26,598 bases of DNA from the IMG/VR virus record IMGVR_UViG_3300035135_001960, positions 1 to 26,598 of that record; one strand, written 5' to 3'. The notes beneath the pieces were generated by a model that was not told where the DNA came from, ran no database searches, and saw nothing but the letters and a program-made list of their open reading frames with translations. This document shows positions 1 to 23,527 of this stretch, in pieces. The translations under genes were made by a program, and so were the position numbers. This DNA comes from a virus. Lineage: Duplodnaviria > Caudoviricetes. Position 1 is the first letter of the stretch; every line of letters starts with the position of its first letter.

Positions 1-3000
1 AAAATAATTTTAAGGACAGCCTTTAGACAACTTTCACAGGATGGAACTCCTACTTTAGGCGGACCTTTAAACGCAGATGGATTTGCTATTGCTAATGTTG
101 CAGTATCGGAAGCGGCGGCAATAGATTACAATAATAGACAGCCGGGCACAGGTGTAACTATAGACGATCTTGTGATAACCAAAGGCTATGCAGACGCAAG
201 ATATATTGCAGGCGACCTACCGATTAGAATTAAAGACGAACCTGTAGATGCTTCATCATACATTTTAAATATAGATAGTTACAATAACGGTAACCTAGTA
301 GTAAATTCACATGGGTTTGATAGAACTGTTAATGGTTCTGAATATGTGTTTAACGCAGAAGACACCACACCTGGTGTACTTACAAACAATGCAAAATATT
401 ATCTAAGATTTGTAAACAGTAATCAATTAGCTGTATATGACACAGAAGCTAAAGCAAAAGAGACAGACGAAGCAGTAGCAGAAGCACAAAAAATTTACAT
501 ATCTGCTACAATAGCCGCTGATGATAGTCATACAATGACTGATGCAGGATATGATTCTAATTTAGAAGGATTCTTCCTAGCTAATGAAGCAGTACCACGT
601 AAACATTTAGTTAGACGTCAAGGCGACAGTATGACTGGTGCGTTAAAACTACATGATCATCCAGGAGACCTTGCAGGACTATCGCAAACAGCAGAAGATT
701 TACAAGCAGCTACAAAGTATTATGTAGATAATACATCTTATTCTGCACCATTTAACCTGTATGTAAGCACTGCGGGCGACAATACAATGACTGGAGTTCC
801 GCCAGGAAAAGAAGGTACTTCTTGGACATATGCATTCAGCACTATTAATGCAGCCGCACAAAGAGCAGAAGAAATGATCAAGGCATCAGAAGCAGAGCCT
901 GGACCATATATGCAAACTATTACTATAGACGAAGGCGCAGAAAATGCAACTGTTATTTCATCCGGAATAGATAATCCAAACTACGGTCAAGCCGCTACTC
1001 TTATTGATCTTAACAGAGAATATATCATAAGAGAGATAACAGGTTATTTACAATTTACATATCCAGATTTCGATTATAATATAAAAACATGCGAAAGAGA
1101 TCTAGGCCTAATTTTAGACTCAATCGCTACAGATATAAAGAAAAGTTTAAGTACAGATCCGTCACAAAATAACGCAAACAGTCTTACAAGAAAAGCGGCG
1201 GAAAGATATTACGCAAATGCAAGTGGTAGAATCGCAATTACCAAACAATATACAGAAACTATCGATGCTATCAATACTGCAAAAGACATTGTTGCATCTA
1301 TACTTTTAAATAGAGTATTTAGACAAACAGCAATTGGTAATATTGTTATTGGATCTATCACAAAAGTTACATCTGCTACACCACACGGTTTGCAAAACGG
1401 TAATATTGTGGTATTCAAAAATACCACAGACTTAGGAACAATACTTAACGACAACTATTTTTATGTTAAAGTTATTAATGCTAATGACTTTGAACTATTC
1501 ACTGATGCAGAATTAACATTAGCTGTAGATACTGCTGCAGAAAATCCATGGTTATCTAATGATGGTGTATTTGGTACTGTATATCAAACAGATGAAAAAC
1601 AAGTTACTGACACAACAGATGCAGCTGAAAATGCTAGGAACGGCATTAACGATAAATTTGATCTTGTTGTTAACATCCTAACAAACGGTATAGATGCTGG
1701 TCAGGCTGTGAACTTTGGTAAAACATATCTAATTGAAGTTACCAACGGAAGTTCAACAAATACAGATCAAGGTGATCCTACAAATAGAGATGTACTACCA
1801 GGAAAAGTGCTAGTAGGTAAAATTTCAGGGGCACAAGGCAGAATAGTAAGTTATACAACAGGAGCAGATTCTTCATCAGGAAATGATGTTATTGAAGTAC
1901 ACTTGTTAAAACCAATTGACTTTATTGTTAACGAGGATTTAGAATTTGGTAATTTTGTTAACAGAAGTCAAATTACAATTATGGTTGAATCAGGACAGTA
2001 TGAAGAAGACTATCCGATTAAAGTAGCGGCAAACGTATCTATTAAAGGTGACGAATTTAGACGTGTAATTATTCGTCCAAAAAATCGTGTATCACAATCT
2101 AAATATGCAAACTCCTACATTTATAGAGATAGAGAGTTTGATGGAATGACCATTGCCGATGCTGGTTCAAGATTCTATAATCAAACAGGCGAATTCCAAG
2201 GTCATTTTGGATATCATTATTTAAGTAATCCTGAATTACCTGCAAACGTTGGCCCAGCAGTTGTTAATGGCGGTGGTTATGCAAACACGGCACGTATTTT
2301 AGAAGAAAACAAAAAATTTATACAAAAAGAAGTTATAAATTATATCAATAGTAACTATCAAACATTATTATTTGATCACACACAATTTCAAACCTATTTA
2401 GAAGAATTAGTTAATGACCTTTTAGTTGATATGTGTGTAAACAGTAACTTCAATAGTAGAAAAAGAGGTTTGCAATTCCAAAGACCAGGCGATTACTATG
2501 CAGATACATATCTAAGATCGCTTGTTAAAATTGGATTCAATGCTATCAAAGCAGACATTCTTGCACTTGCATCATTCCAAGCAAGTGCTGATGCACAAAC
2601 TAGAATCACAGCAGGTTTCGATGATATCATTGATATCATGGACAATGGAAGTTTTGATACAGAAACAGCTGCTGATGCACTCCTACTTACACCCGAAACA
2701 CCAGGTAATGATAACGACAAAGCACGACTTAGCTTACAAGCAAACAGAGAATTTATTGCGGCAGAGGCTCTTGCTAAATTAAAAGAACTTGCTCCTAGAA
2801 AATATTTTAACGAATCTCGTAGATTGCATCAATTTAGATTATTAGTAGATGCTTTGAGCTTTGACTTATTGTATGGCGGGAATATGGGAACCTACGACTT
2901 TACATTATCTATGTTCCCGTTCGATGTATTAGATGTAGAAATTACAACTAGAGAAAATACTGTAGCGGCAATTACACATATAAGACAGGTGTTTTTAGAT

Positions 3001-6000
3001 GTATTAGAAAATGTTGCTATCAATAGTGGTGGCGGAAATACTAGCGGAAACAACGAGTCACAATCAATTGATCCTGCTAGAACTCTTGCAAACAATTCAG
3101 CACCTGGCACAGCATTACAAGAATTAATAGATGACATATTTTTAAGTGCAGTAAGCAATAATAACACTGTTGTAATAGCAGGGCAAAGAAATGAACCAAC
3201 TCTAACAAACTTTCCAGTGCCTTTGACTGATGCTAGAAGCGATGTACAAGGCGACTTTAATAGTTTAGCACAAGATGCAATAGCTGATATGGATTCAGCG
3301 GCTGTTTACACTTACAATGAATTAAAGTGTGAAAGAGATGTTGGCTTAATTGTTGATGGATTGATACATGATGTTGTTGCTGGCGGCGATGAAATGGCCT
3401 TAGAAACGCAAGGCGAATATTTTCAAAGTTACATTTCACAGTACAATAACAACGGCTTCGGCGGACAAGAACTTGTAACAAAAGGTGCAATAGAATATAT
3501 TGCAGATATTGCAGATCGATTAATAGATGGCGCATACGACCCAGCTCTTATTTTACAAAATGTAAACGATGCAAGTTATGTACCACCAGATTTTAAATTT
3601 GGTACAGGTGAAACTTTTTCAGATGTTGCTATTACAAACTTAATTAATAAAATTGTGTTTGCATTTAACACAAATTACAATCCTCCTTTACGTAACGATC
3701 AAATGGATTGCTTCTTAATGAACGATGCAACTATTTTAAGAAATATTACAGTTCAAGGACATGGAGGATTTTTATGTACACTAGATCCAGAAGGACAAAT
3801 TTTAACTAAATCTCCATATGTACAAACAGGTTCATCTTTCAGTAAAAGTATTAATGCTAAAACATTCTCAGGAGGAATGTTTGTTGATGCTTATGTTGGT
3901 AACTTGCCTATGTACATTCCTGATACAATCGAATATGAATTAGGCACGCCAGCAGTAAGCGGTAAAGAAAATAATTTTACACTTTGGGTAAGATCAGAAG
4001 AAGGTCAAGGTTTGTTTATAAGACCTCCAGAACTTCCATGTCCGTTCTATATTGAAGGTAGACGTTTCCAAGTAAATGCTATTTCTAATTATAGTAAATC
4101 AGGAGGCTTCTGTAAAATATTCCTAGATGCATCATCTAATGATGGTAACGGTTATGACGAAAACCTATTCGACGAAAGACCAGGAGAAATAAGTAGAGAA
4201 CTTTACCTACAAACTGCTGGTAACAGATCAATGTTAGGTAACGACTTTACACAGATTAACGACTTAGGTTATGCTCTTGTAACTAACAACGGCGCATTTT
4301 CTGAGATGGTATCTATGTTTACATACTACTGTCATGCAGCTTACTATGCTAAGAATGGTTCAGAAATACGTTCATTAAACGGTTCTAATGGTTATGGTAA
4401 TTTTGGACTAGTTGCTGAAGGTGCTGATCCAAACGAGATTCCGGATCAAATTACTTATGAAGATCCTATGACCTTTAGTGCAAAATCTTTTGTATTTTTA
4501 AACGGTGCAAACAATAGTAACATACAAGACGAAACATCTCTTTTCATAACTGATTGTATAAGTCCGCCACTTAGCGGGTCACTTATTACAATTGATCACG
4601 GCGGCACAGTAGGTACGTTAGATTATCGAGTAGGTGCTGTTACAGAATCAACTGCGGCTACGCCAACTGGTGGTGAATACAATAACACATTATACAGATT
4701 ACAAATCACTGGTTCTCCAGATGGAGAAAATGGTAATTTCTTTAGTGCATTACAAGCTGATGTTACTCAGGGAGAATTAATACAGTACAGATCTGCAGAC
4801 ACACACAAATTACAAAGTATACGTGACTTAGAAGATTTAAAAACTAGACCTTCAACTGCAATTAACTTTGACGAAAGTGATTTGACTACTTACAGATCAA
4901 TTAGTTTTTCTAGTTCTTATTTAAGTGATAGCGGAGATAGTGATAGTACATATGTAACTTTTGATGTTCCTTACGCACATATAGAATTACCAATTGACAA
5001 TGATAACTTAACAGGCGGCAAAGGTTCTACGGCAGGCGATACACAGATTGCTATTAGAACAGACGCAAATGGTAGCCAAAAAATAACTGATGATGAATTA
5101 ACAAGACTCACTTACGACCTGAACGGAAATCAACCACCAGCAAGTTTAGTATATCCTAACGCAGGTACAAGGGTAGCAAACAACATTAGATATGTTGCCG
5201 CAGAAACAGTGGCATATATTAACACAACTTATCCTTCACTTGTGTACAATGAAGATAAGTGTTACAGAGATGTTACTCTTATATTACACGGTATAGTGAA
5301 CGACTTGTTGCACGATGGTAACGCAAGAACAGTTCATACAGCAAGACAATATTATGAACAAACAACGGTTGCACAAGTACCCCCAGATCAACTTGCAGAA
5401 ACAGTTGACGGAATTAATTTTGCAAGAGACTTAGTAATTAACTTTATTTTACCAGGCACTACTCATACTGGAAACAATAATAGAGGTATTGTACAAAGCA
5501 CAGCAGGCGGAGCGGCAGAAGGCGGCACAGGCGCAAAAGTTACTGATTTAATGGGAATTGTTACATCCGCATTAAACACAGGATTCAGTGCAATTCCTGC
5601 TCCAACAGGTTATGCAGGTGGTATGATTTTTGCGTACGGTGGTAAAACGCATCAAATTATTGGAGTAGACCAAGATACTACAGATATAGATCCTGTAGAT
5701 TTTGTTGCAAATAGAACTTATGAAATTACTGCAACAGGAACAACAAACTGGAACGATATTGCAGGTACTACTGGCGTAACATATCAAGTTGGCGATACAT
5801 TTACAGCGTCTGCAACTGGCCTTCCTGGGTCCGGCACAGGTACAGCAATAGATGTAAGTTCTAAACTATTACAACTTAATCCAGGTGCATTGCATGATAT
5901 CTCAGCTCATTACACATCTGGTATGGCAGTTGGTATGATACAAGACAAAGTTTTACAAGCTGGTCTTGTTGACGGTACAACTGGCGAAATAACTATTAAA

Positions 6001-9000
6001 ATTTCATTGTGTAGAGCTACAGGACACGACTTTACACAGATTGGTACTGGATCGTTCAACGATTCAAACTATCCAAATGTTTTGTTAGGACCACCAGAAG
6101 ATTTAACGCTTGCTCCATCTTATGATAACAATCCTAATGCTACTAGAGCACAAGTTTGGGAAAGACGTAAAGGGCGTGTGTTCTGGATGTCAACTGACCA
6201 ATATGGTTTCTTCCGCGTAGGTAAATTCTTTAGTGTAGACCAAGCTCAAGGTTCAATTGAATTCTCAGGCGAAATTGGTATTTCAAATGCTAATGCAATT
6301 GGATTTAAGAAAGGTGTTACAGTTGACGAATTTTCCGTTGACGATACAATGGGCGATAATTCAGAAAATGCTGTACCTACAGAAAGTGCGGTAGTTGGAT
6401 ATATTAACAAACGCTTAGGTAGAGATAAAAACGGTAGTATAGTTTCTGATCCAATTGGTCCAGGCTATCTAGACTTAGATGGTCAAAGTTCAATGAACGG
6501 TGACTTAAAGTTAGGTACTAACAAAGTTATTAACATGGGTACACCAACTAATCCTGCAGATGCAACTACAAAAGCATATGTTGATGCTCTTGCAGGATCA
6601 AGCGATAATATATCAGCACTTAAAAATATTTCAGAAAACGAGCCAGCCGGAGGAGACATATTTGCTTACTCAGGTGCTAAGAAATTGTTTATTGACCTTC
6701 CAGTTGATTCTGGCGGTAATGGAAATGATTTTGAAATTGGTGATGTCATCGAAGATACATCAGGTGGTATATTTAAAGAGGGCACTATTGTAGATATTAC
6801 TACAGGTATTGTAGATACTATCGACGGAGATCCTTCATTAGGTTATGTAACATATGAGGTTGTTTATGAACCTGCTGCAAACTCTGTAGATTTTAATGCT
6901 GGTGAAGTCGTAAGACTTAAAACTAATAATGCTGTTACTTCAACTATCATTAAAGGTCCATTTGATGAAATTGCAAATACAAGACTAGATCCAGGCAGTG
7001 ATATTAGTTTTACTGTAACAAGAAATACAGATACCGTTGCACAAAATGAACCAATAGCAGATATTGACATACAGATTAATGCAGGTGCTATAGAAAATGC
7101 AGATGTTAATGCAAGTGCTAGTATACAGCAGAGCAAGTTATTACTAGAAAGAGCAAAAGTAGCCAACACAAGTACAGGTTTATATGGCACAAATGATGAC
7201 ACTGGACAGTCTGACAGAGGGTCTGCAATATTTGATGACGCATCTTTTGCAACAGAAGTAAAACTAACATTGTCAGGACCTATTACAGCAAGTGCAGGTT
7301 GGATAATTTATCAAGGAGTCAGTGTCAAAGGTACAGTAGTTACTGCTACTTCAGCAAGTGCAGAACTAATTGTAAGAACATCAGATACTTTTGGTGTTGG
7401 CAATCCATTGTTAGAATATGCAGAAATAGACAGCAATGGTGTAGAACTAGCAAAACAAAATTTAGGTGTAACTGTAACTGACGCAGAGGAAAGTGGATAT
7501 ATAGCTATTAAAGATCGTTCAATAGAACTAAACAAATTAGCAACTATTGACACTGACACTGTGCTTGGTAGGTCAGCAGATGGGTCAGGTGAAGTACAAA
7601 CTGTCAGCTTTGACGAAATAATTGATCAAGGATTTGCACTTCAAGATAAAGACTTTGATAGTTCAGAGATAACATCAACTATTGTGCAAAGAGTAAGATT
7701 TACTAGTGAAGTTACTGTTGCTGATGGAACAACGATAACTCAACCATCAACAGGATTCACAGGAGAAGTACAGGGCTCTGTTTTTTCAGAAGACATTGTA
7801 TACTTTGTAAATGTAATTGACCCTAGTAATAACAATAATCCTGTAACGTTTAACACAGGTAATGTTAATTTACCAAACGGTGATTTACTAGGAAGTATTC
7901 AAACAGCAACTCCAAACTTTAGTATAGCTGGCGGAGCACTAGTAAAAACTGAAGAGGGAGTATATGGAACTGTTACAGTAAGTACTGGTACTGCAAGTGA
8001 TAGTATGGCAAGAAGAACTAATGGTGGATCTTTACACGCATCATCGTTCATTGTAGGAGGTTCATCTACTAATGAAGTGCTTAGTGAAAATGGCGGCGTT
8101 CTATCATTGAAAACTCCGGGACAAGGTATAATACTTACTTCTGTAGGAAACGCAAATACTGATCCACTTGTTAAGATTCCTGGTAAACTTACAGTAGGTG
8201 AAGACATAACAACGAATCCTACATGGGGTGCAAGAGAAAGTGAATCAACTCTACAAACAAACTCAAACGATAATGCAACACCAACACCAAACGCTACATT
8301 CGGCGGTAAAGGTTTTGTATCTGCACCTTGGATGTATACTCCGTTTATTGAGGCGCCTTTTGAAGGTGATTCAACAGGTACAGGTATAGGTTTAGGTGCT
8401 GGTACTGGATTCACAGATGCTGGCGATGATGTTGTTCAGGTAATTACAAATGGCGATGTAATGTTGCAAATTACACAGACAGATGTGTTATCAAAAGGCA
8501 CACTTGCATCTGAAGGTGCATTATCATCAGGAGGAGATTTTAGTGTAGGTCTTAACACGTTTACTGTAGCGGCAACAAATGGTAATACGCTAGTAGGCGG
8601 CACATTAGATGTTACAGGCTTAGTAAATCTTAATGATACTACTAATAGTACAAACACAACATCAGGTGCTTTAGTTGTAGATGGCGGACTAGGAATAGGT
8701 CTTAACCTAAATGTAGGTGGAGATTTGTCTGTAAACGGTTCAACAGAACTAGGAAATGATCCAAGTGACACGTTGTCAATAGGTGCATTAGTTAACTCGA
8801 ATATTATTCCAACTGGAACTAGAGATTTAGGATCAGGACCACAACCTTGGAACTTTGTATATGGTAACACATTCTCCGGTACAGCAACAACAGCAAAATA
8901 CGCTGACCTAGCAGAAAATTATATCGCTGATAAAAACTATGCTCCTGGCACTGTTTTAGTTTTAGGCGGGACACAAGAAGTAACAACAACCACAACAAAA

Positions 9001-9273
9001 GGTGATACAAGAGTGGCAGGTGTTGTTACAACTAATCCAGCACACTTAATGAATAGTGCATTAGAAGGTGAAAATGTTGTAGGTGTAGCACTTGCAGGTA
9101 GAGTTCCAGTAAAAGTATTAGGTAAAGTTGAAAAAGGCGACATACTTGTTGCTAGTGCTATTGCTGGGTTTGCTTGTGTAGACAATAATGCTAAAGCCGG
9201 TGCTATTATCGGTAAAGCAATTAATTCAAAATCAGATGCCGACAAAGGTATTATTGAAGTACTAGTAGGTTAA
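1..9273 (+). CDS. Giant virion structural protein (tail/baseplate-associated fibre or spike), 5'-truncated. Contains an interrupted pectin-lyase-like beta-helix, helical 'KCxRD' repeats and a C-terminal autocleaving-chaperone-like domain
   Basis: The frame of the 172..9273 ORF is open from base 1 (KIILRTAFRQLSQDGTPTLGGPLNADG...), so the true start is upstream of the window. Motifs include AATKYYVD/DATTKAYVD fibre repeats, LYVSTAGDN..AFSTINAA, VESGQYEEDYPI..VSIKGDEFRRVIIRP and a C-terminal KYADLAENY...GRVPVKVLGKVEKGDILV...IIGKAI. Confidence 0.85.
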   Translation, partial: KIILRTAFRQLSQDGTPTLGGPLNADGFAIANVAVSEAAAIDYNNRQPGTGVTIDDLVITKGYADARYIAGDLPIRIKDEPVDASSYILNIDSYNNGNLVVNSHGFDRTVNGSEYVFNAEDTTPGVLTNNAKYYLRFVNSNQLAVYDTEAKAKETDEAVAEAQKIYISATIAADDSHTMTDAGYDSNLEGFFLANEAVPRKHLVRRQGDSMTGALKLHDHPGDLAGLSQTAEDLQAATKYYVDNTSYSAPFNLYVSTAGDNTMTGVPPGKEGTSWTYAFSTINAAAQRAEEMIKASEAEPGPYMQTITIDEGAENATVISSGIDNPNYGQAATLIDLNREYIIREITGYLQFTYPDFDYNIKTCERDLGLILDSIATDIKKSLSTDPSQNNANSLTRKAAERYYANASGRIAITKQYTETIDAINTAKDIVASILLNRVFRQTAIGNIVIGSITKVTSATPHGLQNGNIVVFKNTTDLGTILNDNYFYVKVINANDFELFTDAELTLAVDTAAENPWLSNDGVFGTVYQTDEKQVTDTTDAAENARNGINDKFDLVVNILTNGIDAGQAVNFGKTYLIEVTNGSSTNTDQGDPTNRDVLPGKVLVGKISGAQGRIVSYTTGADSSSGNDVIEVHLLKPIDFIVNEDLEFGNFVNRSQITIMVESGQYEEDYPIKVAANVSIKGDEFRRVIIRPKNRVSQSKYANSYIYRDREFDGMTIADAGSRFYNQTGEFQGHFGYHYLSNPELPANVGPAVVNGGGYANTARILEENKKFIQKEVINYINSNYQTLLFDHTQFQTYLEELVNDLLVDMCVNSNFNSRKRGLQFQRPGDYYADTYLRSLVKIGFNAIKADILALASFQASADAQTRITAGFDDIIDIMDNGSFDTETAADALLLTPETPGNDNDKARLSLQANREFIAAEALAKLKELAPRKYFNESRRLHQFRLLVDALSFDLLYGGNMGTYDFTLSMFPFDVLDVEITTRENTVAAITHIRQVFLDVLENVAINSGGGNTSGNNESQSIDPARTLANNSAPGTALQELIDDIFLSAVSNNNTVVIAGQRNEPTLTNFPVPLTDARSDVQGDFNSLAQDAIADMDSAAVYTYNELKCERDVGLIVDGLIHDVVAGGDEMALETQGEYFQSYISQYNNNGFGGQELVTKGAIEYIADIADRLIDGAYDPALILQNVNDASYVPPDFKFGTGETFSDVAITNLINKIVFAFNTNYNPPLRNDQMDCFLMNDATILRNITVQGHGGFLCTLDPEGQILTKSPYVQTGSSFSKSINAKTFSGGMFVDAYVGNLPMYIPDTIEYELGTPAVSGKENNFTLWVRSEEGQGLFIRPPELPCPFYIEGRRFQVNAISNYSKSGGFCKIFLDASSNDGNGYDENLFDERPGEISRELYLQTAGNRSMLGNDFTQINDLGYALVTNNGAFSEMVSMFTYYCHAAYYAKNGSEIRSLNGSNGYGNFGLVAEGADPNEIPDQITYEDPMTFSAKSFVFLNGANNSNIQDETSLFITDCISPPLSGSLITIDHGGTVGTLDYRVGAVTESTAATPTGGEYNNTLYRLQITGSPDGENGNFFSALQADVTQGELIQYRSADTHKLQSIRDLEDLKTRPSTAINFDESDLTTYRSISFSSSYLSDSGDSDSTYVTFDVPYAHIELPIDNDNLTGGKGSTAGDTQIAIRTDANGSQKITDDELTRLTYDLNGNQPPASLVYPNAGTRVANNIRYVAAETVAYINTTYPSLVYNEDKCYRDVTLILHGIVNDLLHDGNARTVHTARQYYEQTTVAQVPPDQLAETVDGINFARDLVINFILPGTTHTGNNNRGIVQSTAGGAAEGGTGAKVTDLMGIVTSALNTGFSAIPAPTGYAGGMIFAYGGKTHQIIGVDQDTTDIDPVDFVANRTYEITATGTTNWNDIAGTTGVTYQVGDTFTASATGLPGSGTGTAIDVSSKLLQLNPGALHDISAHYTSGMAVGMIQDKVLQAGLVDGTTGEITIKISLCRATGHDFTQIGTGSFNDSNYPNVLLGPPEDLTLAPSYDNNPNATRAQVWERRKGRVFWMSTDQYGFFRVGKFFSVDQAQGSIEFSGEIGISNANAIGFKKGVTVDEFSVDDTMGDNSENAVPTESAVVGYINKRLGRDKNGSIVSDPIGPGYLDLDGQSSMNGDLKLGTNKVINMGTPTNPADATTKAYVDALAGSSDNISALKNISENEPAGGDIFAYSGAKKLFIDLPVDSGGNGNDFEIGDVIEDTSGGIFKEGTIVDITTGIVDTIDGDPSLGYVTYEVVYEPAANSVDFNAGEVVRLKTNNAVTSTIIKGPFDEIANTRLDPGSDISFTVTRNTDTVAQNEPIADIDIQINAGAIENADVNASASIQQSKLLLERAKVANTSTGLYGTNDDTGQSDRGSAIFDDASFATEVKLTLSGPITASAGWIIYQGVSVKGTVVTATSASAELIVRTSDTFGVGNPLLEYAEIDSNGVELAKQNLGVTVTDAEESGYIAIKDRSIELNKLATIDTDTVLGRSADGSGEVQTVSFDEIIDQGFALQDKDFDSSEITSTIVQRVRFTSEVTVADGTTITQPSTGFTGEVQGSVFSEDIVYFVNVIDPSNNNNPVTFNTGNVNLPNGDLLGSIQTATPNFSIAGGALVKTEEGVYGTVTVSTGTASDSMARRTNGGSLHASSFIVGGSSTNEVLSENGGVLSLKTPGQGIILTSVGNANTDPLVKIPGKLTVGEDITTNPTWGARESESTLQTNSNDNATPTPNATFGGKGFVSAPWMYTPFIEAPFEGDSTGTGIGLGAGTGFTDAGDDVVQVITNGDVMLQITQTDVLSKGTLASEGALSSGGDFSVGLNTFTVAATNGNTLVGGTLDVTGLVNLNDTTNSTNTTSGALVVDGGLGIGLNLNVGGDLSVNGSTELGNDPSDTLSIGALVNSNIIPTGTRDLGSGPQPWNFVYGNTFSGTATTAKYADLAENYIADKNYAPGTVLVLGGTQEVTTTTTKGDTRVAGVVTTNPAHLMNSALEGENVVGVALAGRVPVKVLGKVEKGDILVASAIAGFACVDNNAKAGAIIGKAINSKSDADKGIIEVLVG

Positions 9274-15361: not shown

Positions 15362-15595
15362 ATGTTCAACCCATTAGTAGATAGCTTTGATGATTTAACA
15401 GACTCTGAAGTTGATGACAAAATACAAGAGTTATCACGTAAATATTGGCAAACTAAAAATCCTTCTTTACAACAACAAATTTCAACAGTTTTAGAAATGT
15501 TTAAAGCAGAAGCGGCCACCCGTAGAGCAAAGCAACTGCAAAAAAGTCAAACTGATAGTGAATCAGGACTTGACAATCTAATAAATGTATCGTAA
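15362..15595 (+). CDS. Hypothetical protein (77 aa, helical/coiled)
   Basis: Fills the gap exactly between neighbouring genes on the same strand. No recognisable motif. Confidence 0.65.
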   Translation: MFNPLVDSFDDLTDSEVDDKIQELSRKYWQTKNPSLQQQISTVLEMFKAEAATRRAKQLQKSQTDSESGLDNLINVS

Positions 15596-15598
15596 AAT
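15570..15598 (+). promoter_or_regulatory. Sigma70-type promoter TTGACA-N17-TAAAAT
   Basis: TTGACA at 15570-15575, a 17-nt spacer and TAAAAT at 15593-15598, lying 6 nt before ATG 15605. Confidence 0.8.
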
Positions 15599-15604
15599 AC
15601 ATAT

Positions 15605-16162
15605 ATGCTTATGAAAACAGACGAACTAGGTATACCGAGATTCTCTAATCGCGATTTAATCGATATGATCTATTCAGGTCATGCTGATAAAGTCCATGTG
15701 GTGTTATGTGATTCTAGTGATGATGTAGATAAATTTAATACAGCAATGGAAGAGCAAGGTATGAATCCATTGCAAAAATATATTCCATTAGATGTAGACC
15801 AAAAGACGTTTGACGGTGTGTGTCAAAGTGAATGGTTTATGCCAGATGAATACAAAGCACTTGCTATAGGAGAATGGCTATTCGCAAAAGTGATTGAAGA
15901 AAAACAAAACTTTGGAGTTGATTTTATATATAACTCTCCAGAATGGATGCGAGTAGAAGAAGAACTAGAAGCGTTTAAAGAACGTGGTATGTTTGACCTA
16001 TTACGCTATATGATTTATCTAGTGGACTTTATGCGTGAGAACAACATCGTATGGGGTGTAGGACGTGGATCTAGTGTTGCTAGTTATGTGTTATATTTGA
16101 TCGGTGTACATCGTATAAATTCAATCCAATATGGCCTGGACTGGCGAGAGTTCCTGAGATAA
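15605..16162 (+). CDS. dnaE: DNA polymerase III alpha (DnaE)-like fragment: N-terminal palm portion only
   Basis: RVEEELEAFKERGMFDLLRYMIYLVDFMRENNIVWGVGRGSSVASYVLYLIGVHRINSIQYGLDWREFLR aligns by eye with the DnaE segment RLxxELxVIxxMGFxxYFLIVxDFIxWAKxNGIxVGPGRGSxAGSLVAYxLxITxIDPLxYxLLFERFL. It ends before PDxDxD. Confidence 0.85.
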   Translation: MLMKTDELGIPRFSNRDLIDMIYSGHADKVHVVLCDSSDDVDKFNTAMEEQGMNPLQKYIPLDVDQKTFDGVCQSEWFMPDEYKALAIGEWLFAKVIEEKQNFGVDFIYNSPEWMRVEEELEAFKERGMFDLLRYMIYLVDFMRENNIVWGVGRGSSVASYVLYLIGVHRINSIQYGLDWREFLR

Positions 16163-16165
16163 GTA
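16158..16165 (+). promoter_or_regulatory. Putative late promoter variant (GATAAGTA)
   Basis: One mismatch to GATAAATA, at the same spacing (about 22 nt) before ATG 16187, with an AGGAGG RBS. Confidence 0.5.
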
Positions 16166-16186
16166 AGCATACAATAGGAGGTTTTT

Positions 16187-16564
16187 ATGGTACAAAAACA
16201 AACTGGACAAAAAGTCTATAGAACAATGCAAGGCAAATCTGTTAATATGGATATGTTACGCAAAAGAAATGAGCTAACACCAGCAGTTGGTAATGTTTCT
16301 GTAAACGCAAGAGGCGACGAACTAGGACCTGGCGGACAAATTATTCGTAAACGTGAAGAAATTGTTAAAGAATATTATGATAACAGCAATGGTGTAAAAA
16401 CACAAAAAGCAGTTCGTAGAGATGAATTTCAACCACCTGTAGAAGCAGTTGAAAAAGATCTTACAGACGATTTCGTTGATCCTGATTTAGATACAAGTAA
16501 TTGGGTAGAAGACGAAGAAGGAAATTTTGTAAAAAAAGAAACTACAACTAAAAAGGGTAAGTAA
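16187..16564 (+). CDS. Hypothetical phage protein with acidic C-terminal tail
   Basis: 125 aa with an AGGAGG RBS and a PAVGNVSVNARGDELGPGGQII core. Its TAA overlaps the next ATG. Confidence 0.75.
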   Translation: MVQKQTGQKVYRTMQGKSVNMDMLRKRNELTPAVGNVSVNARGDELGPGGQIIRKREEIVKEYYDNSNGVKTQKAVRRDEFQPPVEAVEKDLTDDFVDPDLDTSNWVEDEEGNFVKKETTTKKGK

Positions 16565-16962
16565 TGGCTATTAACCTTAATGCAATTAAAGGAACACCAA
16601 GAGCAGTAGGAAATAGAGTTCTTGTAACTGATATGCACTTTGGTGAACAAACTACAAAAGGCGGCATTATTCTCACAGATGATAATGCTACAACAAGAGG
16701 AATATATCCTCGTTGGGGTAGAGTTTATTCAAAAGGTCCCCTTAATAAAGACCCATATGAAGTAGGAGATTGGATATTAATTGAACATGGCCGTTGGACA
16801 CGGGCTATGAATATTGACACTCCTGAACAAGAAGGTTTAATTGTACGTATGGTAGAATCTGAAGCAGTTCTTGCTTCTTCAAAAGAAAAGCCAAACGATG
16901 CACAAATCGGCGCAGAATATAGTGACGGTCAAGGTGCATGGGTTGGCGATGTAGCATCTTAA
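16564..16962 (+). CDS. groES: GroES/Cpn10-like co-chaperonin
   Basis: PRAVGNRVLV...EQTTKGGIIL (mobile loop)...GRVYSKGP...YEVGDWILI matches the Cpn10 pattern PLxDRVLV..E.KT.GGIIL..G.VVAVG...VKVGD.V. Confidence 0.8.
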   Translation: MAINLNAIKGTPRAVGNRVLVTDMHFGEQTTKGGIILTDDNATTRGIYPRWGRVYSKGPLNKDPYEVGDWILIEHGRWTRAMNIDTPEQEGLIVRMVESEAVLASSKEKPNDAQIGAEYSDGQGAWVGDVAS

Positions 16963-16974
16963 AGGTAAAAAATT

Positions 16975-17328
16975 ATGACTAACCCGTTTGCAGATATTGA
17001 ACGTTTCGGTTCGGCTTGTGATCAACCGCCGAGCGAAGAAAACTATAAAATGTATCTTAGCCTAATTGATGAAGAAGTAGGCGAACTTAATGATGCTGTA
17101 AATTCAAATGATAAATTAGAACAACTTGATGCACTTGTTGATATTCTTGTTGTTACAATGGGTGCTATACGTGCCGCAGGTTGGGACGGACAAGGTGCCT
17201 GGAAAGAAGTAATGGATACAAACTTTGCAAAGATTGATCCAGACACTGGTAAAGTCCGTAAGCGTGAAGATGGCAAGGTTTTGAAGCCAGAAGGATGGAA
17301 AGCGCCACAACTTGAGAAGTTTTTATAA
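16975..17328 (+). CDS. MazG-like all-alpha NTP pyrophosphohydrolase (probable dUTPase-type)
   Basis: LIDEEVGEL...EQLDALVDILVV gives the EExxE...ExxD metal motif. The C-terminus is NFAK...KREDGKVLKPEGWKAP. Confidence 0.8.
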   Translation: MTNPFADIERFGSACDQPPSEENYKMYLSLIDEEVGELNDAVNSNDKLEQLDALVDILVVTMGAIRAAGWDGQGAWKEVMDTNFAKIDPDTGKVRKREDGKVLKPEGWKAPQLEKFL

Positions 17329-18047
17329 TGTTATGGTGCTTCGGTTGTAGTTTTTCTGTTGGTTTAGATGCCCACTACACAGCATTATACAACGAGTATC
17401 CTGTTATAGAGAACAACTATCAAACAGCTCTTGCAGATAAATTAAAACAAGATTTAACGGTGCAGGCTCAGTTTGGAGTAGGCAATGATTGGATCTGGCG
17501 AAGATTTTCAAGTAATTTTGAAAACTATGCAAACGGCGATTATATAATTGTACAAACTACAAGCCTTAGCAGGTATTGGTTAACTGAAAAATACCCAGAA
17601 TGTAGTAATTTTATGATGTGTCCTGTTGAAAAAGATTGGTTCACCAAAGATGAACTAAAAGCAATAGAACTTCATAAGAGACATCTGTGGCACAATACTG
17701 TACTAGAATCAAACTATGATATGTTTGTGTGTGCATTGCTTTACATAGCAAACATGAGGCCTGACCTTAAGATATTATTCTTACCAGGATTTCACGATAT
17801 TGCAGGTGTGGGCGGAAGATTAAATGACATATGTATGGGCGAATTCACATCACAAGATGTTGCTGACAAATACTATGCAACAGGTGAGGCAGACTTCAGA
17901 ATAAACCATATGAGCGAAAAAAATCATCTTATTCTGGCTGATAAAATATATGAATTTTTTGAAAATGATCAAGCATTAGACTTGAAAACTGGCTTTGAAA
18001 CAGGCCTAATCACAGATAAAAATTACTTGACATATCCTAAATCTTAA
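17328..18047 (+). CDS. SGNH/GDSL-hydrolase-like protein
   Basis: Has an N-terminal LWCFGCSFS (GDS-like block I), AQFGVGND (block II-like) and a C-terminal NHMSEKNHLILADKIY (block V-like). Confidence 0.55.
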   Translation: MLWCFGCSFSVGLDAHYTALYNEYPVIENNYQTALADKLKQDLTVQAQFGVGNDWIWRRFSSNFENYANGDYIIVQTTSLSRYWLTEKYPECSNFMMCPVEKDWFTKDELKAIELHKRHLWHNTVLESNYDMFVCALLYIANMRPDLKILFLPGFHDIAGVGGRLNDICMGEFTSQDVADKYYATGEADFRINHMSEKNHLILADKIYEFFENDQALDLKTGFETGLITDKNYLTYPKS

Positions 18048-18055
18048 GCTATAAT
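18027..18055 (+). promoter_or_regulatory. Perfect sigma70 consensus promoter TTGACA-N17-TATAAT
   Basis: TTGACA at 18027-18032, a 17-nt spacer and TATAAT at 18050-18055. An AGGGG RBS and GTG 18086 follow. Confidence 0.9.
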
Positions 18056-18085
18056 ATACTAAAATATTAATTTTAGGGGTATATA

Positions 18086-18631
18086 GTGGCTACACACGGC
18101 ATGATAGATTTAGAAACATTAGGTGTTGAACCAGATAGTGTTATTATGACACTAGGTGCAATAAAGTTTGACCCATTCAATGATTCAGAACCCCATAGTC
18201 CTCTTTATCTTAGAGGTGATGTAGAAGAGCAGACTGAATTTCCTTATGAACGAAGTATAGACGACAACACTCTTGCATGGTGGAGTAAACAACCACAAGC
18301 GATACAAGACGAAGCATTCGGTGATGAACACAAAAGAGTAAGTGTACAAGAAATGTTACGTCAACTTAACAAATGGTGTGTTGGACTAGACTATATTTGG
18401 TGTCAAGGTCCAACATTTGATTTTGTTATACTACAGCATTTGTATAAACAGGCAGAAAAACCTGCACCTTGGAACTATTGGCAAATTAGAGATAGTAGAA
18501 CATTATTTGCAATGATGCCAAGCGATCCTCGCAAGGCAATACAGGAAAGTTTGCATAACGCACTAGCAGACTGTTACTATCAAGCAAAGTGTGTACAACA
18601 ATCATATAAACACTTTGGAGTAACTAAATGA
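18086..18631 (+). CDS. DEDDh 3'-5' exonuclease (Rv2179c/DUF5051-like)
   Basis: ExoI motif MIDLETLG, ExoII motif GPTFDFVIL and ExoIII motif HNALADC, plus WQIRDSRT. Confidence 0.85.
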   Translation: MATHGMIDLETLGVEPDSVIMTLGAIKFDPFNDSEPHSPLYLRGDVEEQTEFPYERSIDDNTLAWWSKQPQAIQDEAFGDEHKRVSVQEMLRQLNKWCVGLDYIWCQGPTFDFVILQHLYKQAEKPAPWNYWQIRDSRTLFAMMPSDPRKAIQESLHNALADCYYQAKCVQQSYKHFGVTK

Positions 18632-18789
18632 TTAGATGGTATGATATTCCTGCGGCATTAGTATTTGCGTATTTTATGATGCTAAATTTTTTTACAGTTC
18701 CTGGTTTTGGTGCATTATTGGCTTATGTTGTTTATGAAGTTTGGGTGAATTGGTATTGTAAGTTAAGATTACAACAGGAGAATACATGA
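18628..18789 (+). CDS. Small membrane protein (53 aa), not in ORF track
   Basis: MIRWYDIPAALVFAYFMMLNFFTVPGFGALLAYVVYEVWVNWYCKLRLQQENT. It has a GGAG RBS and ATGA overlaps at both ends. Confidence 0.75.
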   Translation: MIRWYDIPAALVFAYFMMLNFFTVPGFGALLAYVVYEVWVNWYCKLRLQQENT

Positions 18790-19112
18790 GTATAGAACCA
18801 ATTCAAGAAAAACTAGATGATAAGATTAAAAAACTTAACTCCAGTCGTGTATATAAAGCGGTAACTCCTAAAGGAGATTTATCTTGGTATATAAAATGGA
18901 TAGCCAGTGCTTTTATACTTGTCGCAGTAATGTGTAGAAGTGTAGACGAAGTTCCGAAAATTTATGATGTTGTATTAAGTTTTGTAGGAACAATTGGTTG
19001 GGCTTGGGTTGGTTATTTATGGCATGATAGAGCTTTGCTCTTGCTCAATGCTGTTTTATGTGTTATACTAGGTACTAGTATGTTAAGATATTTTGCAGGA
19101 GGTATGTTTTGA
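18786..19112 (+). CDS. Small multi-pass membrane protein (DUF6552-like)
   Basis: 108 aa with three hydrophobic segments: SWYIKWIASAFIL...GWAWVGYLWHDRALLLLN. AGGAG RBS. Confidence 0.65.
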   Translation: MSIEPIQEKLDDKIKKLNSSRVYKAVTPKGDLSWYIKWIASAFILVAVMCRSVDEVPKIYDVVLSFVGTIGWAWVGYLWHDRALLLLNAVLCVILGTSMLRYFAGGMF

Positions 19113-20023
19113 AGGAACTTTGGGTAGAAAAATATAGACCGAAGACAGTAGATGGTTATGTGTTTCGCGATGAAGCACAAAAGACACAGGTAAAAACGTG
19201 GATAAAAGACAAAACAATTCCACACTTGCTTTTTTCAGGCAATGCTGGAATAGGAAAAACAACGTTGGCAAAATTGTTGTTCAACGAGTTAGACGTCAAC
19301 GATTTAGACGTACTAGAAATTAACGCATCTCGGACAAATAGTGTAGACGATGTTCGAGATAAAATTGTAAACTTTGTACAAATGATCCCATTTGGGGACT
19401 TTAAGGTTGTATTACTAGATGAGGCAGATTACTTATCTCCAAACGCACAGGCCGCACTACGTGGTGTTATGGAAGAATATCATACAACGGCCCGTTTTAT
19501 ACTTACTTGTAACTATCCTAACAGAATTATTCCAGCTATTCACAGCAGGTGCCAAGGCTTCCATATTGCCAAAATTGATCAGACAGAGTTTACTGCTCGT
19601 GTCGCTGAAATTCTTATCACTGAAAGCGTCACTCCTGATCTTGATGTACTAGATACATATGTAAAGGCAACTTATCCAGACTTGCGTAAGTGTATCAATA
19701 TGGTACAGATGAATTCATCAGACGGACAATTACTTGCACCACACGAAGGTGATACAGGAGAAAGTGATTGGAAGTTAGATATGGTCGAACTTTTCAAGGC
19801 TGGTAAAATACAAGAAGCACGTAAGTTACTGTGTGGTACTATTCGTCCAGAAGAAATGGAAGAAGTTTATCGTTGGTTATATGACAACATTGAATTGTTC
19901 GGAAATGAAGAACAACAAGATCAAGCAGTGCTAATTATTAAGCAAGGATTGGTTGATCATACACTTGTTGTTGATCCTGAAATTAACTTAGCGGCAACGC
20001 TGATTAGATTAGCGAGGTTATAG
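19109..20023 (+). CDS. Clamp loader AAA+ subunit (RFC small subunit / T4 gp44-like)
   Basis: RFC box LWVEKYRP, Walker [15 protein letters not shown], Walker [20 protein letters not shown] motif (IHSRC) and DLRKCIN. AGGAGG RBS with a TTG start. Confidence 0.92.
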
Positions 20024-20376
20024 TGACATATCTAGTTACAGATAATTGTATAAAATGTAAGCATATGGATTGTGTAGAAGTATGCCCTGTTGATTGTTTT
20101 TACGAAGGTGAAAACATGTTAGTAATTAACCCTGATGAATGTATTGACTGCGGGGTGTGTGAACCTGAATGCCCTGCTGACGCAATACTACCTGACAGTG
20201 CATTAGGTGATGAACGTGATAAATGGCATGATATAAATTTAAAGTACAGTTTACAGTGGCCATTAATTACAACCGTAAGGATAGAAGATGTGCCATCAGA
20301 CGCAGACGAATGGAATGGTGTACCTAACAAGTTCGAAGAACACTTTTCTTCTAATCCTGGAAAAGGTGATGAATGA
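20023..20376 (+). CDS. fdxA: 7Fe/8Fe dicluster ferredoxin (FdxA/FdI type)
   Basis: [55 protein letters not shown] closely matches proteobacterial FdxA N-termini. Confidence 0.92.
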
Positions 20377-20978
20377 CATATGTGGCAAACTTTCCTAACT
20401 GTGGATATGTTGGGCATGAATACAATGTCCAAGACCTTATTCCAATACGTCAAGAAATAAAAGATATACAAAACAATTGGTCAACAAAAGAACAAACTGA
20501 TCATACATTTACCAGTACAGTAAAAAAAGAATATAAAATACAAGACAGTTTAGAGCATTTAGAGAAACTCGTCTGTCCACTTGTTGGTTTGTATTACGAA
20601 AACTTTCACATAGATCAAGCGGAAGGAAAACCTTACTTGCATAGTGCGTGGGTTAACTTCCAAGAAAAAGGAGAGTTTTTTGCACCTCACACACATGTAG
20701 GAGAATTTAGTTTTGCTCTTTATTTACAAGTTCCTTTTACATATGAACAAGAAAGAAAATATCATAGTACAAAAGACAAAAAAATAGATACTGCATCAGG
20801 TTTTGTTTTTTACTATACCGATATTCTTGGTAACATTATACCTAGTTATTTGCCTGTTGATAAAACTTGGGAAAACAAAATTATATTTTTTCCAGGACAA
20901 CTGTTACATTCTGTACAACCGTTTTTTACTTCTGATGATTATAGAATTACGATTTCAGGAAATGTGAGGTTTAAATGA
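20373..20978 (+). CDS. Putative 2OG-Fe(II) oxygenase (phage HxH type)
   Basis: [17 protein letters not shown]...SFALYL...[15 protein letters not shown]...RITISGN gives a double-stranded beta-helix pattern with HxH...H...RxxxS. Confidence 0.75.
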
Positions 20979-21067
20979 TTTGGATTATATTAGAAACAGT
21001 GCTATGGATGATTGCTATGTACACCATTCCAGTAGGCTTATTAATTATGTGGAATAATGAAAAATGA
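20975..21067 (+). CDS. Single-TM microprotein (30 aa), not in ORF track
   Basis: [30 protein letters not shown]. It has a GAGG RBS and ATGA overlaps with both neighbours. Confidence 0.65.
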   Translation: MIWIILETVLWMIAMYTIPVGLLIMWNNEK

Positions 21068-21558
21068 TAAAAGCTATATTAGCATGTGATGATGAAGGCG
21101 GTGTGAGTAAAGACGGAACGTTACCGTGGCCTCACAACTCAAAAGATTTACAATGGTTTAAGGACAATACAGCAGGACATGTTGTTGTAATGGGATCTAC
21201 TACTTGGGAAGATCCTCATATGCCAAGGCCGTTACCTAGACGTACAAATGTACTAGTAACTACACGCAAAGAAGATTATCCAGGAGCAGATGGATATATC
21301 AGTGGCGACTTAAATATAGAACTAAAAGAGCTTGAAGCAACTTGTCCTGGAATTATTATTTGGAATATAGGAGGTCCAAATATAATTGAACAATCTCTAG
21401 GAGTAATTGACGAATTTTATATAAGTCGGATACCAGGAACATACGACTGCGACACATTCCTTCCACTAAAGAAAATTGAATCATTATTTGAATTAGATTT
21501 TGAAGAAGCACATGATAAAGTAACATTTCAAATTTGGAAAAAAAGGAAATACCTGTGA
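21064..21558 (+). CDS. folA: Dihydrofolate reductase
   Basis: Motifs include ILACDDEGGVSKDGTLPWP..DLQWFK..T.GHVVVMGSTTWE, RPLPRRTNVLVT, IGGPNI and CDTFLP. Confidence 0.93.
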   Translation: MIKAILACDDEGGVSKDGTLPWPHNSKDLQWFKDNTAGHVVVMGSTTWEDPHMPRPLPRRTNVLVTTRKEDYPGADGYISGDLNIELKELEATCPGIIIWNIGGPNIIEQSLGVIDEFYISRIPGTYDCDTFLPLKKIESLFELDFEEAHDKVTFQIWKKRKYL

Positions 21559-22409
21559 AACAATATCTAGAAGCACTAAATTACATACTAGAAAACGGTA
21601 AGGACCGCGATGACAGAACTGGCGTAGGAACCAGAGGTGTGTTTGGTTATCAAATGCGTTTCGATTTAAGAGAAACATTTCCAGCAGTAACTACAAAAAA
21701 ACTTGCTTGGAAAAGTGTAGTAAGTGAACTGTTGTGGTTTTTAGAAGGTTCGTCTGATGAACGTAGACTTGCAGAAATACATTACGGTAAACCCCGTGAA
21801 GAACTTGTAGGAAAAACAACGATCTGGACAGCAAACGCTGACAAGCAAGGTAAGGCACTAGGTTATGCAGACGGCGAGCTAGGACCTGTCTATGGTGTCC
21901 AATGGCGTAATTGGAACGCTAGAGGTCATCATGTAGATCAAATAGTTAATATTATTAAACAAATTTATGAAGATCCGTTGAGTCGTAGGCACATAGTAAG
22001 TGCTTGGAATGCAGGAGAAGTAGATCGTATGGCACTTCCTCCTTGTCATACAATGTTTCAATTTCATGTACAAGACAATGAATTAAGTTGTCAACTTTAT
22101 CAACGTTCTGCAGATATGTTTTTAGGTGTACCATTTAACATTGCAAGTTATAGTTTACTAACACATATTGTTGCAAAATTATTAAATTTAAAGGTTGGTG
22201 ATTTTGTTTGGACAGGCGGAGATTGTCATATCTATCTTAATCATTTAGATCAAGTAAAAGAGCAAATAAGTAGACAGCCTAGAAAAGGTCCTACTCTTTG
22301 GATGCCAGAATTTATGACTCTAGCAGAGGTAAACGAAGCAAAACCAGATATGTTTAAGTTAATGAATTATGATCCAATGGAAAGTATAAAAGCACCCATG
22401 GCTGTATGA
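21555..22409 (+). CDS. thyA: Thymidylate synthase (T4 td-like)
   Basis: Motifs include DDRTGVGT, ELLWFL, LGPVYGVQWR, SRRHIVSAWN, MALPPCH and YQRSADMFLGVPFNIASY. The start is probably GTG 21555 (GTGA overlap with the folA stop, AGGA RBS) rather than 21534. Confidence 0.95.
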   Translation: MKQYLEALNYILENGKDRDDRTGVGTRGVFGYQMRFDLRETFPAVTTKKLAWKSVVSELLWFLEGSSDERRLAEIHYGKPREELVGKTTIWTANADKQGKALGYADGELGPVYGVQWRNWNARGHHVDQIVNIIKQIYEDPLSRRHIVSAWNAGEVDRMALPPCHTMFQFHVQDNELSCQLYQRSADMFLGVPFNIASYSLLTHIVAKLLNLKVGDFVWTGGDCHIYLNHLDQVKEQISRQPRKGPTLWMPEFMTLAEVNEAKPDMFKLMNYDPMESIKAPMAV

Positions 22410-23527
22410 TAAAAGAATTATATAATATTTGGAATATAAAAGATGAACATATATCAGGAGATAAATTTACTGGTTATGAATCTGTGTATGACCAATTAGA
22501 CATTACAAAAGAAGATTATGAAAAAGATCCAGAAGGAATTATTGATAGGGTTTTCACCATTTATCGTAGTATTAATCTTGTACCTATCGTATATTACACC
22601 GAACAAGGACTCATCACAGCAATTAAAGAGTTTGGAACCAAGTCATATACAGGTGTTAGAGCTGGAGCCATTGGACTCGGTAATAACGCAGGACAAACCA
22701 TAAATAGATTTTTGTTTCCTAATATGATGACAGCTGAGCCAAAAGGTCGAGGCTCAAATAGTTTAAAGGATAGATTTTACAATGACGCTAAACTTCGTCG
22801 TGCAATCAGAATATGCTTTGAGTTTCGTGATGGTAATAATCTTGTACATCCTACTGCGATGCGTAGGGCACTTGAACTTGTTACGGGTGAGAACGTTACA
22901 AATTTCAAAGCACAAAACGCCAAAGCAATAGTAGAACACCTTTGTCCTGTGCTATGGGGCAACATATATGATTATAGTGCAGGATACGGTGGAAGATTAT
23001 TAGGAATAACCTCCAGTAATATGCGTTACAATTATGTAGGAATTGATCCTAACACAGAAACAATAAAATACTTAAATTATTTACAACAACTTATAGAAGA
23101 ATCTATAGGGATTACTAGCGAAATCTTTTGTTCAACAAGTGAAGAATATGAACCTGAGAATATAGATTTGGCATTTAGTAGTCCACCTTATTTTAACTTG
23201 GAGAAATATTCAGATGAAGATACGCAATGCATGGTTAGGTATAAAACGTTGGATGATTGGTTTGATGGCTACGTTACTCCGACCATTAAACAAATATTTA
23301 ACGGACTCAATAGAGAAGGACTTTTCGCTACTAACATCGCAGACTACAAAACCTACGGGAACAAAGAATTTAAAGTGGTCGAGACATGGAAAGAAGTATC
23401 TAAAAGAATAGGCTTTGAACATGTTGGTACAATAAAAATGATGCTTAACACACGACCGGGTGTAGGCAACGACAAAACACAAGGGAGGGAAAAATATGAA
23501 GGTGTTTATGTTTTTCGTAAAAAATGA
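22406..23527 (+). CDS. SAM-dependent DNA amino-methyltransferase (N4-C or N6-A)
   Basis: Motif I YDYSAGYGGRLLG, then YVGIDPN, then motif IV DLAFSSPPYFNLEKY. Confidence 0.8.
   Translation: MIKELYNIWNIKDEHISGDKFTGYESVYDQLDITKEDYEKDPEGIIDRVFTIYRSINLVPIVYYTEQGLITAIKEFGTKSYTGVRAGAIGLGNNAGQTINRFLFPNMMTAEPKGRGSNSLKDRFYNDAKLRRAIRICFEFRDGNNLVHPTAMRRALELVTGENVTNFKAQNAKAIVEHLCPVLWGNIYDYSAGYGGRLLGITSSNMRYNYVGIDPNTETIKYLNYLQQLIEESIGITSEIFCSTSEEYEPENIDLAFSSPPYFNLEKYSDEDTQCMVRYKTLDDWFDGYVTPTIKQIFNGLNREGLFATNIADYKTYGNKEFKVVETWKEVSKRIGFEHVGTIKMMLNTRPGVGNDKTQGREKYEGVYVFRKK

Follow-up and report, generated by a model that had tools for sequence, protein, structure and literature searches.

The N-terminal unit of a split minimal DNA polymerase III alpha in an uncultured phage and its predicted partner chain

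The window analysed here, an entire virus contig of 26,598 bases, carries the gene for an N-terminal unit (N unit) of the split minimal Pol III alpha known from jumbo phages of group 2.2 (RaK2/PA5oct-like), a system already described from sequence by Iyer et al. 2021 (Viruses 13:63, PMC7824862, section 3.4.1), and hence real, not new. On the basis of sequence comparison and structure models, the N unit and a partner of about 185 residues, encoded by a distant gene in related phages, are likely (probability about 0.8) to bind each other non-covalently and to form a predicted accessory polymerase-like heterodimer of ~370 residues. It had been proposed from the window alone that a family C polymerase is assembled non-covalently from separately encoded chains. 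Comparative genomics and single-chain folds support the intein-free split through the active site that this reading contained, which is not new. The features referred to below are collected in Table 1.

Table 1. Features of the window and of related genomes (window coordinates unless a genome is named)
Feature	Position	Strand	Remarks
Upstream ORF	15362..15595	+	77 aa, phrog_15348 (function not assigned); conserved neighbour, 72/79 loci
Sigma-70-type promoter TTGACA-17-TAAAAT	15570..15598	+	11/12 matches; -35 inside upstream gene
N-unit gene (N-terminal unit, split minimal Pol III alpha)	15605..16162	+	185 aa, phrog_11127
N unit residues 1-74			Family-specific extension
N unit residues 75-185			N-terminal palm region, E. 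coli 278-393 (structure superposition)
R154-G155-S156 codons	16064..16072	+	E. coli R362-G363-S364, dNTP-contacting GS motif
Conserved C-terminus E182-F-L-R185-stop	16148..16162	+	E182 at E. coli R390 position
ATAAGTA overlapping N-unit stop codon	16159..16165	+	Same offset in 44/50 distinct downstream sequences
Downstream ORF	16187..16564	+	125 aa, phrog_14844, unrelated to DnaE; own RBS; neighbour in 71/76 loci
GroES-like co-chaperonin	16564..16962	+	Conserved neighbour, 61/63 loci
RFC-type clamp-loader ATPase (gp44-like)	19109..20023	+	T4-like group 2 replisome marker, 40/43 loci
Partner gene, G001	G001:232628-233185		185 aa, phrog_11778
Partner gene, G002	G002:237753-238313		186 aa, phrog_11778
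Sigma-70/short-spacing site	G001:C1:234757	+	
Sigma-70/short-spacing site	G002:C1:236580	-	
Sigma-70/short-spacing site	G002:C1:244683	-	
Sigma-70/short-spacing site	G002:C1:240565	-	
Split Pol III alpha pair (PHROG 11127 + 11778), RaK2			YP_007007317.1 + YP_007007279.1
Split Pol III alpha pair (PHROG 11127 + 11778), PA5oct			QCG76169.1 + QCG76101.1

The N-unit reading frame is intact and terminates in ...GLDWREFLR. PF07733 matches residues 114-184 (E 1.2e-10; 41.9 bits, cut-off 23.9), the 171-position family phrog_11127 covers almost the whole protein, and a profile of 134 relatives aligns with residues 319-392 of E. coli DnaE. The last residue corresponds to the position of N393, and M399-P400-D401 of the E. 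coli enzyme begins six residues on, as expected of a frame that had been read as stopping just before the catalytic aspartates. Within the 134 aligned rows R154-G155-S156 is invariant, and the position of R390 is occupied by an acid throughout (Glu in 123, Asp in 11). The terminal xEFL[RK] of the N unit is explained by descent from the FERFL segment of DnaE, as opposed to the idea of a clamp-binding peptide. The stop codon directly ends the DnaE-like segment with no intein-like tail, as had been noted, and no intein family in Pfam matches the N unit or its partner; since neither chain carries intein sequence, splicing is not involved.

The fold of the N unit was predicted as a single chain with AlphaFold2 (pLDDT 92.6) and compared with 48,161 solved chains. 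The top seven matches are all C-family polymerases (Z 8.3-12.3; next 3.6), and residues 75-185 superpose on E. coli alpha with Z of 10.4-10.6 and rmsd of 2.9-3.3. The sequence-only reading had placed the likeness to DnaE in the last ~70 residues and had left the N-terminal ~110 residues outside it; the structural match is longer (about 110 residues), so that only ~75 residues lack an assignment. For this extension, no polymerase aligned with residues 1-74 in the structure search, Atlas matches reached only 0.84 and came without a family, and a local profile gave no significant match between residues 1-95 and E. coli DnaE. A remnant of the PHP C-terminal tail in residues 1-75 was suggested by a forced global alignment only and was rejected, as both the local profile and the structure search speak against it.

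The complementary chain was sought in two relatives whose complete sequences were examined, G001 (236 kb), whose N unit is 90% identical, and G002 (275 kb), where the identity is 82%. A motif scan of their 1734 ORFs gave five matches, among them, once in each genome, the expected gene with MPDIDIDF at its start; the same gene was detected with PHROGs and with PF17657 at a loose threshold. PF07733 alone does not detect the partner, and there was no Pfam match to it above the cut-off. The expectation that the GRGS loop resides on the N unit and the catalytic aspartates on another chain, encoded by an ORF that starts with (M)PDIDIDF, is thus supported by relatives, which do carry a complementary PDxDxD fragment. 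The gene is absent from the window's contig, 15.6 kb of which lie upstream of the N-unit gene. As the window is a whole contig lacking the partner, its presence in this exact phage is deduced from relatives. In G002 the partner lies ~120 kb upstream of the N-unit gene, and in cultured phages the two genes are 5-182 kb apart.

The single-chain model of the partner (pLDDT 93.8) has as its top seven matches the same C-family polymerases as the N unit (Z 6.5-9.9; next 4.7). Between 181 and 183 of its 185 residues align over E. coli residues 400-781, with a start at M399/P400; since so short a chain spans this region, it has lost the thumb and much of the fingers through internal deletions. Residues D3, D5, D7, K63, D65, R132, P133 and H165, which are equivalent to E. 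coli D401, D403, D405, K553, D555, R639, P640 and H760, are invariant in 238 of 238 rows, a count that is in part circular, as the motifs entered both the locus searches and the extraction pattern (159 of the 160 loci were extracted by motif pattern, 120 proteins were not motif-filtered, and one row is a duplicate). All eight hold in four distant cultured phages as well. Furthermore, the positions of Y754, F756 and H760 are retained, and that of N757 is an invariant Lys.

These positions can be related to what has been published on the E. coli enzyme and on family C. The conserved acids of the family are D401/D403/D555 and D405 (PMC3919608), and dGTP is contacted by R362-G363-S364, D401/D403, Y754/F756/N757/H760, R390, R709, K714 and K715 (10.64898/2026.06.29.735100). 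Residues R639 and P640 contact the templating base, K553 the primer phosphate and H760 the deoxyribose (PMC8485763; 10.64898/2026.06.29.735100), and a steric gate has been proposed at H760 (PMC8485763). Substitutions R362A and K553A abolish activity, and R390A cuts efficiency 27-fold, R390 being within 4 A of dGTP; the thumb holds DNA in DnaE (10.64898/2026.06.29.735100). According to the same source, a cryo-EM preprint of 2026, palm residues 271-393 are largely unchanged on DNA binding, whereas the part bearing D401/D403 moves (10.64898/2026.06.29.735100), and the phage break coincides with this boundary between rigid and mobile palm. Of the family C hallmarks, the phage pair has the GS motif on the N unit and the Asp triad together with the DnaE-type D405 on the partner; it lacks the palm arginine R390 and the single-chain architecture with PHP and thumb.

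Several of these features speak against a canonical polymerase: the acid at the R390 position in all 134 rows, the location of the R396 position in the gap between the two chains, the apparent deletion of the index-finger segment with R709/K714/K715, the invariant Lys in place of N757, and the absence of a thumb. It is therefore conceivable that the assembled pair is an active nucleotidyltransferase of the Pol-beta fold which does something other than ordinary templated synthesis, for instance adding nucleotides without a template, using a modified nucleotide or marking DNA ends. The missing thumb and most of the fingers, the lost palm arginine and the complete family B replicase already present would all suit such an enzyme. 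On the other hand, the equivalents of R639, P640, K553 and H760 are invariant in the partner, and K135 and K162, which are invariant or nearly so, could replace the lost basic residues. Taken together, we regard this explanation as improbable, though as the best of the alternatives to a polymerase-like heterodimer.

The distribution of the two genes bears on whether they act together. The partner gene is found in 96 cultured-phage records, and the per-genus counts of records with N unit and partner are 34 and 34 for Escherichia, 11 and 11 for Pseudomonas, 8 and 8 for Erwinia, 8 and 8 for Salmonella, and 10 and 11 for Klebsiella. Both halves are present in all four cultured phages tested. Among long contigs picked by the partner, the N unit was also found in four of five, including both complete ones; the fifth, G008, has the partner without the N unit, but at 73% completeness this carries no information. 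The location of the N-unit gene among structural genes, far from the partner in cultured phages, counts against a heterodimer, and the fragment had alternatively been suggested to be a modulator of the host Pol III. A decoy or modulator acting alone would fit a gene that has its own sigma-70-type promoter, is not adjacent to the partner and encodes a chain predicted to fold confidently by itself. It is nevertheless disfavoured, and we consider it very unlikely, because the N unit co-occurs, with matching per-genus record counts, with a complementary chain starting where it ends, and because its GS motif, needless for a decoy, is invariant.

A full-length DnaE profile (phrog_405, 1190 positions) was used to search the genomes of five relatives, among them RaK2 and two that are rated complete. 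Only the N unit and the partner were found in each of the five, the N unit at profile positions 337-440 and the partner at 441-453, 578-686 and 773-809, so that the two abut at about 429-440 and 441. PHP was found in none of the five genomes, as compared with 14 of 14 controls, and profile searches of the same genomes gave no thumb, HhH, OB or third DnaE piece; the separate finger and thumb fragments that had been anticipated do not appear. A family B polymerase occurs in all five relatives' genomes and in all four cultured phages, and its motifs are intact in G001 and G002. Therefore the idea of separately encoded subunits does not hold if read as the rebuilding of a full Pol III. Equally improbable as the decoy is the related possibility that a full-size replicative Pol III is divided over several genes, the N unit being one part and the PHP, thumb and remaining domains being encoded elsewhere. 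In its favour, parts that have diverged might be missed by profiles, and residues 1-74 have no assigned homologue; against it, the thumb and finger segments are deleted inside the partner and not left for another chain, no PHP accompanies the two pieces, and the family B polymerase and a T4-type clamp loader are present.

The N-unit gene is intact, conserved and under purifying selection. It has at least 8000 homologues of similar length (8000 of 8000 scored candidates in a search limited to 101-324 aa), the best 120 of which are 75-99% identical and 173-186 aa long, and orthologues are found in RaK2, GAP32, PBECO4, 121Q, PA5oct, Paride, XacN1 and Atu_ph07. Across 80 related loci the protein stops at the same residue in 73 and one residue later in six, the remaining one being cut by a contig end; the break point is thus kept within one residue in 79. 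GRGS occurs in 135 of the 150 distant representatives listed. The protein ends 33 residues from the G of this motif in 108 of the 135 and 34-43 residues from it in a further 26, and in no case does DxDxD follow. Pairwise dN/dS has a median of 0.19 and a maximum of 0.41 (56 distinct sequences; 1313 of 1540 pairs retained with 0.05<dS<1.5), and is 0.19 in both gene halves (residues 1-110 and 111-185). The stop codon is crossed with no differences by contigs of two other runs, X3 (15991-16600; study P3) and X5 (16106-16600; study P5), neither study being flagged as a source, so there is no assembly break or frameshift near 16160; contig X10, with fewer than 31 letters to the left of the stop, was left out of the count. 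A search for longer proteins, which is weak evidence, gave four matches among 479 candidates and no full-length DnaE: the four look like fusions or chimeras that include unrelated domains; three of them lie on one contig, and P0124 ends at the usual place. In protein P0123 (666 aa, one contig), probably a chimera, the N unit runs in frame into a ribonucleotide reductase domain. A decaying or mis-assembled dnaE fragment, for which there is the short length and nothing more, is already refuted by the independent contigs, the shared end, the selection on both gene halves and, weakly, the longer-protein search.

The promoter that had been noted for the gene is kept in 78 of 80 related loci. In the window alone the site is unremarkable, as a scan found five sites against 4.6 expected by chance. 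In the 50 distinct upstream sequences, for which the site nearest an in-frame ATG was taken at each locus, all 50 have a spacer of 17, 49 have TTGACA as the -35 box, and 48 have the ATG 6 nt past the -10 box, with no room for a Shine-Dalgarno site; this geometry would imply a leaderless mRNA for the N unit. The -35 box overlaps Leu-Asp codons of the upstream gene, which read CTT-GAC in all 25 loci listed. As CTT-GAC accounts for only 70 of the 879 Leu-Asp pairs in ORFs of G001 and G002, its constancy here points to selection on the DNA. The same 6-nt spacing precedes the primase gene in 42 of 47 distinct sequences, and among 57 promoter-like sites before ORFs of at least 50 aa, seven have it, three before the N-unit gene and two before the primase. 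The N-unit gene sits among structural genes, but its promoter may therefore group it with the replication genes. Sigma-70 sites with the ATG 6-7 nt past the -10 box recur before the primase gene and a few others in the replication cluster (Table 1). Contigs of RNA run X15 cover parts of the N-unit gene; such contigs show neither strand, start nor level.

Downstream, the next gene is unrelated, as had been stated, and has its own ribosome-binding site (AGGAGG at 16176-16181, ATG at 16187). The ATAAGTA sequence at the N-unit stop codon, which we take to resemble a T4-type late promoter in its general form ATAA[AG]TA, likely serves the downstream genes. Copies on the plus strand, this one included, are intergenic just before genes, several of them structural (9285, 11895, 14761, 16159, 24615 and 26574), and three more are inside genes (4189, 22266 and 22700). 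When window positions 15362-16962 are compared with G001:5674-7289, the N unit is 90% identical and its neighbours 34%, 48% and 57%, an excess that could reflect either stronger constraint or recent exchange. Elsewhere in the window there are a 3033-aa tail-fibre-like protein at 172-9273 (+), genes for MazG, exonuclease, ferredoxin, 2OG-Fe(II) oxygenase, DHFR and thymidylate synthase at 16975-22409, and a 373-aa ORF at 22406-23527 (+), between thymidylate synthase and phoH, which has a weak DNA-methyltransferase PHROG match (E 1.7e-5) and no match among the ORFs of G001 or G002.

The surroundings of the partner gene are conserved as well. It lies no more than 3 kb upstream of the primase in 55 of 61 loci, and likewise in RaK2 and PA5oct. 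An antisense ORF of ~120 aa (phrog_11637) directly follows the partner at L100:5182-5550 (-) and L118:10776-11132 (-) in G001 and G002; RaK2, PA5oct, Atu_ph07, Vibrio 2.275.O and Slickus01 have an antisense ORF in a comparable position. In 58 of 60 loci a C2H2-like zinc-finger ORF (phrog_11058) is located within 3 kb upstream of the partner. From its position, either the phrog_11637 ORF or the zinc-finger ORF could be a cofactor.

The traits of group 2.2 are found in the stand-alone N unit and the clamp loader of the window, in the separate, distant C unit of G001 and G002, and in the lack of other Pol III domains and the T4-like family B polymerase of relatives. The RaK2/PA5oct system is alike in having two units on distant genes, the same break and a family B polymerase alongside, and also in its neighbours, namely a small upstream ORF, a ~120-aa ORF and GroES. 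In contrast, the N unit of the window belongs to an uncultured aquatic lineage, is 35-42% identical over most of its length to the PA5oct/XacN1-type orthologues, has about 12 extra residues around 99-110 compared with the RaK2/PA5oct type, and has a conserved leaderless-type promoter. In RaK2 and PA5oct the N-unit gene overlaps the one before it, and the stretches compared contain no such site. E. coli DnaE (Pol III alpha, 1160 aa; PDB 5m1s, 5fku) shares with the phage pair the palm fold, the GS motif and, across the two chains, the positions of D401/D403/D405/D555, K553, R639-P640 and Y754/F756/K758/H760. The pair differs from it in being two chains of ~370 aa in total, with an acid at the R390 position and Lys at that of N757, and in having no PHP, thumb, clamp-binding fingers, HhH, OB or tau-binding domain. 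Cyanobacterial DnaE is likewise encoded by two genes (PMC3919608). Its halves are joined by a trans-splicing intein, whereas the phage pieces are minimal and have no intein halves at the break. Beyond the 2021 account, the present analysis adds the rigid/mobile break, the acidic R390 position, the conserved promoter geometry common to the N-unit and primase genes and the place of the partner gene beside the primase, although the R390 change, the accessions and the neighbourhoods may already stand in the figures or supplement of PMC7824862. Among Creative Commons PMC and bioRxiv articles, judged by listed records and the openings of their abstracts, no experimental follow-up of the split minimal Pol III alpha was found; these collections gave no PA5oct expression paper either, and the passages of PMC12926913 consulted do not mention the split system.

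Two side observations concern the distribution of these polymerases. The family B polymerase match lies in two open frames in PA5oct (W01; 217618-221395, 825 + 379 aa) and in Atu_ph07 (W03; 212336-213688, 578 + 418 aa). Alishewanella phage Slickus01 (OQ508957.1, 141,644 bp; L302/L306), which is well below jumbo size, has both halves with catalytic motifs and also a family B polymerase in two frames.

In the heterodimer proposed here, the two chains would associate without splicing and rebuild one active site, to which the N unit would contribute the rigid palm base and the GS loop, while the partner would bring in the metal ligands and the finger helix that caps the nucleotide. Because the thumb and the clamp-binding region are missing, we infer that the enzyme would be distributive and accessory; its low processivity, the formation of the heterodimer and its activity are predictions from sequence and models. 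It would work beside the family B polymerase, which is likely the replicase. Bacillus subtilis DnaE3 and eukaryotic Pol alpha have a role in primer extension, and the phage pair resembles them, by functional analogy only, as a second polymerase beside the main replicase. By this analogy, it can be tentatively suggested that the pair extends primase-made primers with a short DNA tract, or fills short gaps at the fork, before handing over to family B; synthesis in repair or recombination is about as likely. Slightly more doubtful is the specific proposal that this thumb-less, very small family C polymerase, an enzyme of bacterial type, is a dedicated extender of primase primers, which it would pass on to a T4-type family B replicase in the manner of Pol alpha. 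In such a scheme the split at the rigid/mobile boundary of the palm might allow activity to be switched on by the supply of the N unit, whose leaderless-type promoter would mirror that of the primase.

The N-unit gene is one of thousands in a family described from sequence in 2021 and hence no discovery. Since both genes are found in cultured laboratory phages that infect E. coli and other hosts, the system is directly testable, and the primase linkage, the common promoter geometry and the acidic R390 position are concrete points to test. A two-chain family of this kind would mark the minimal catalytic core to which the bacterial family of replicative polymerases can be reduced.
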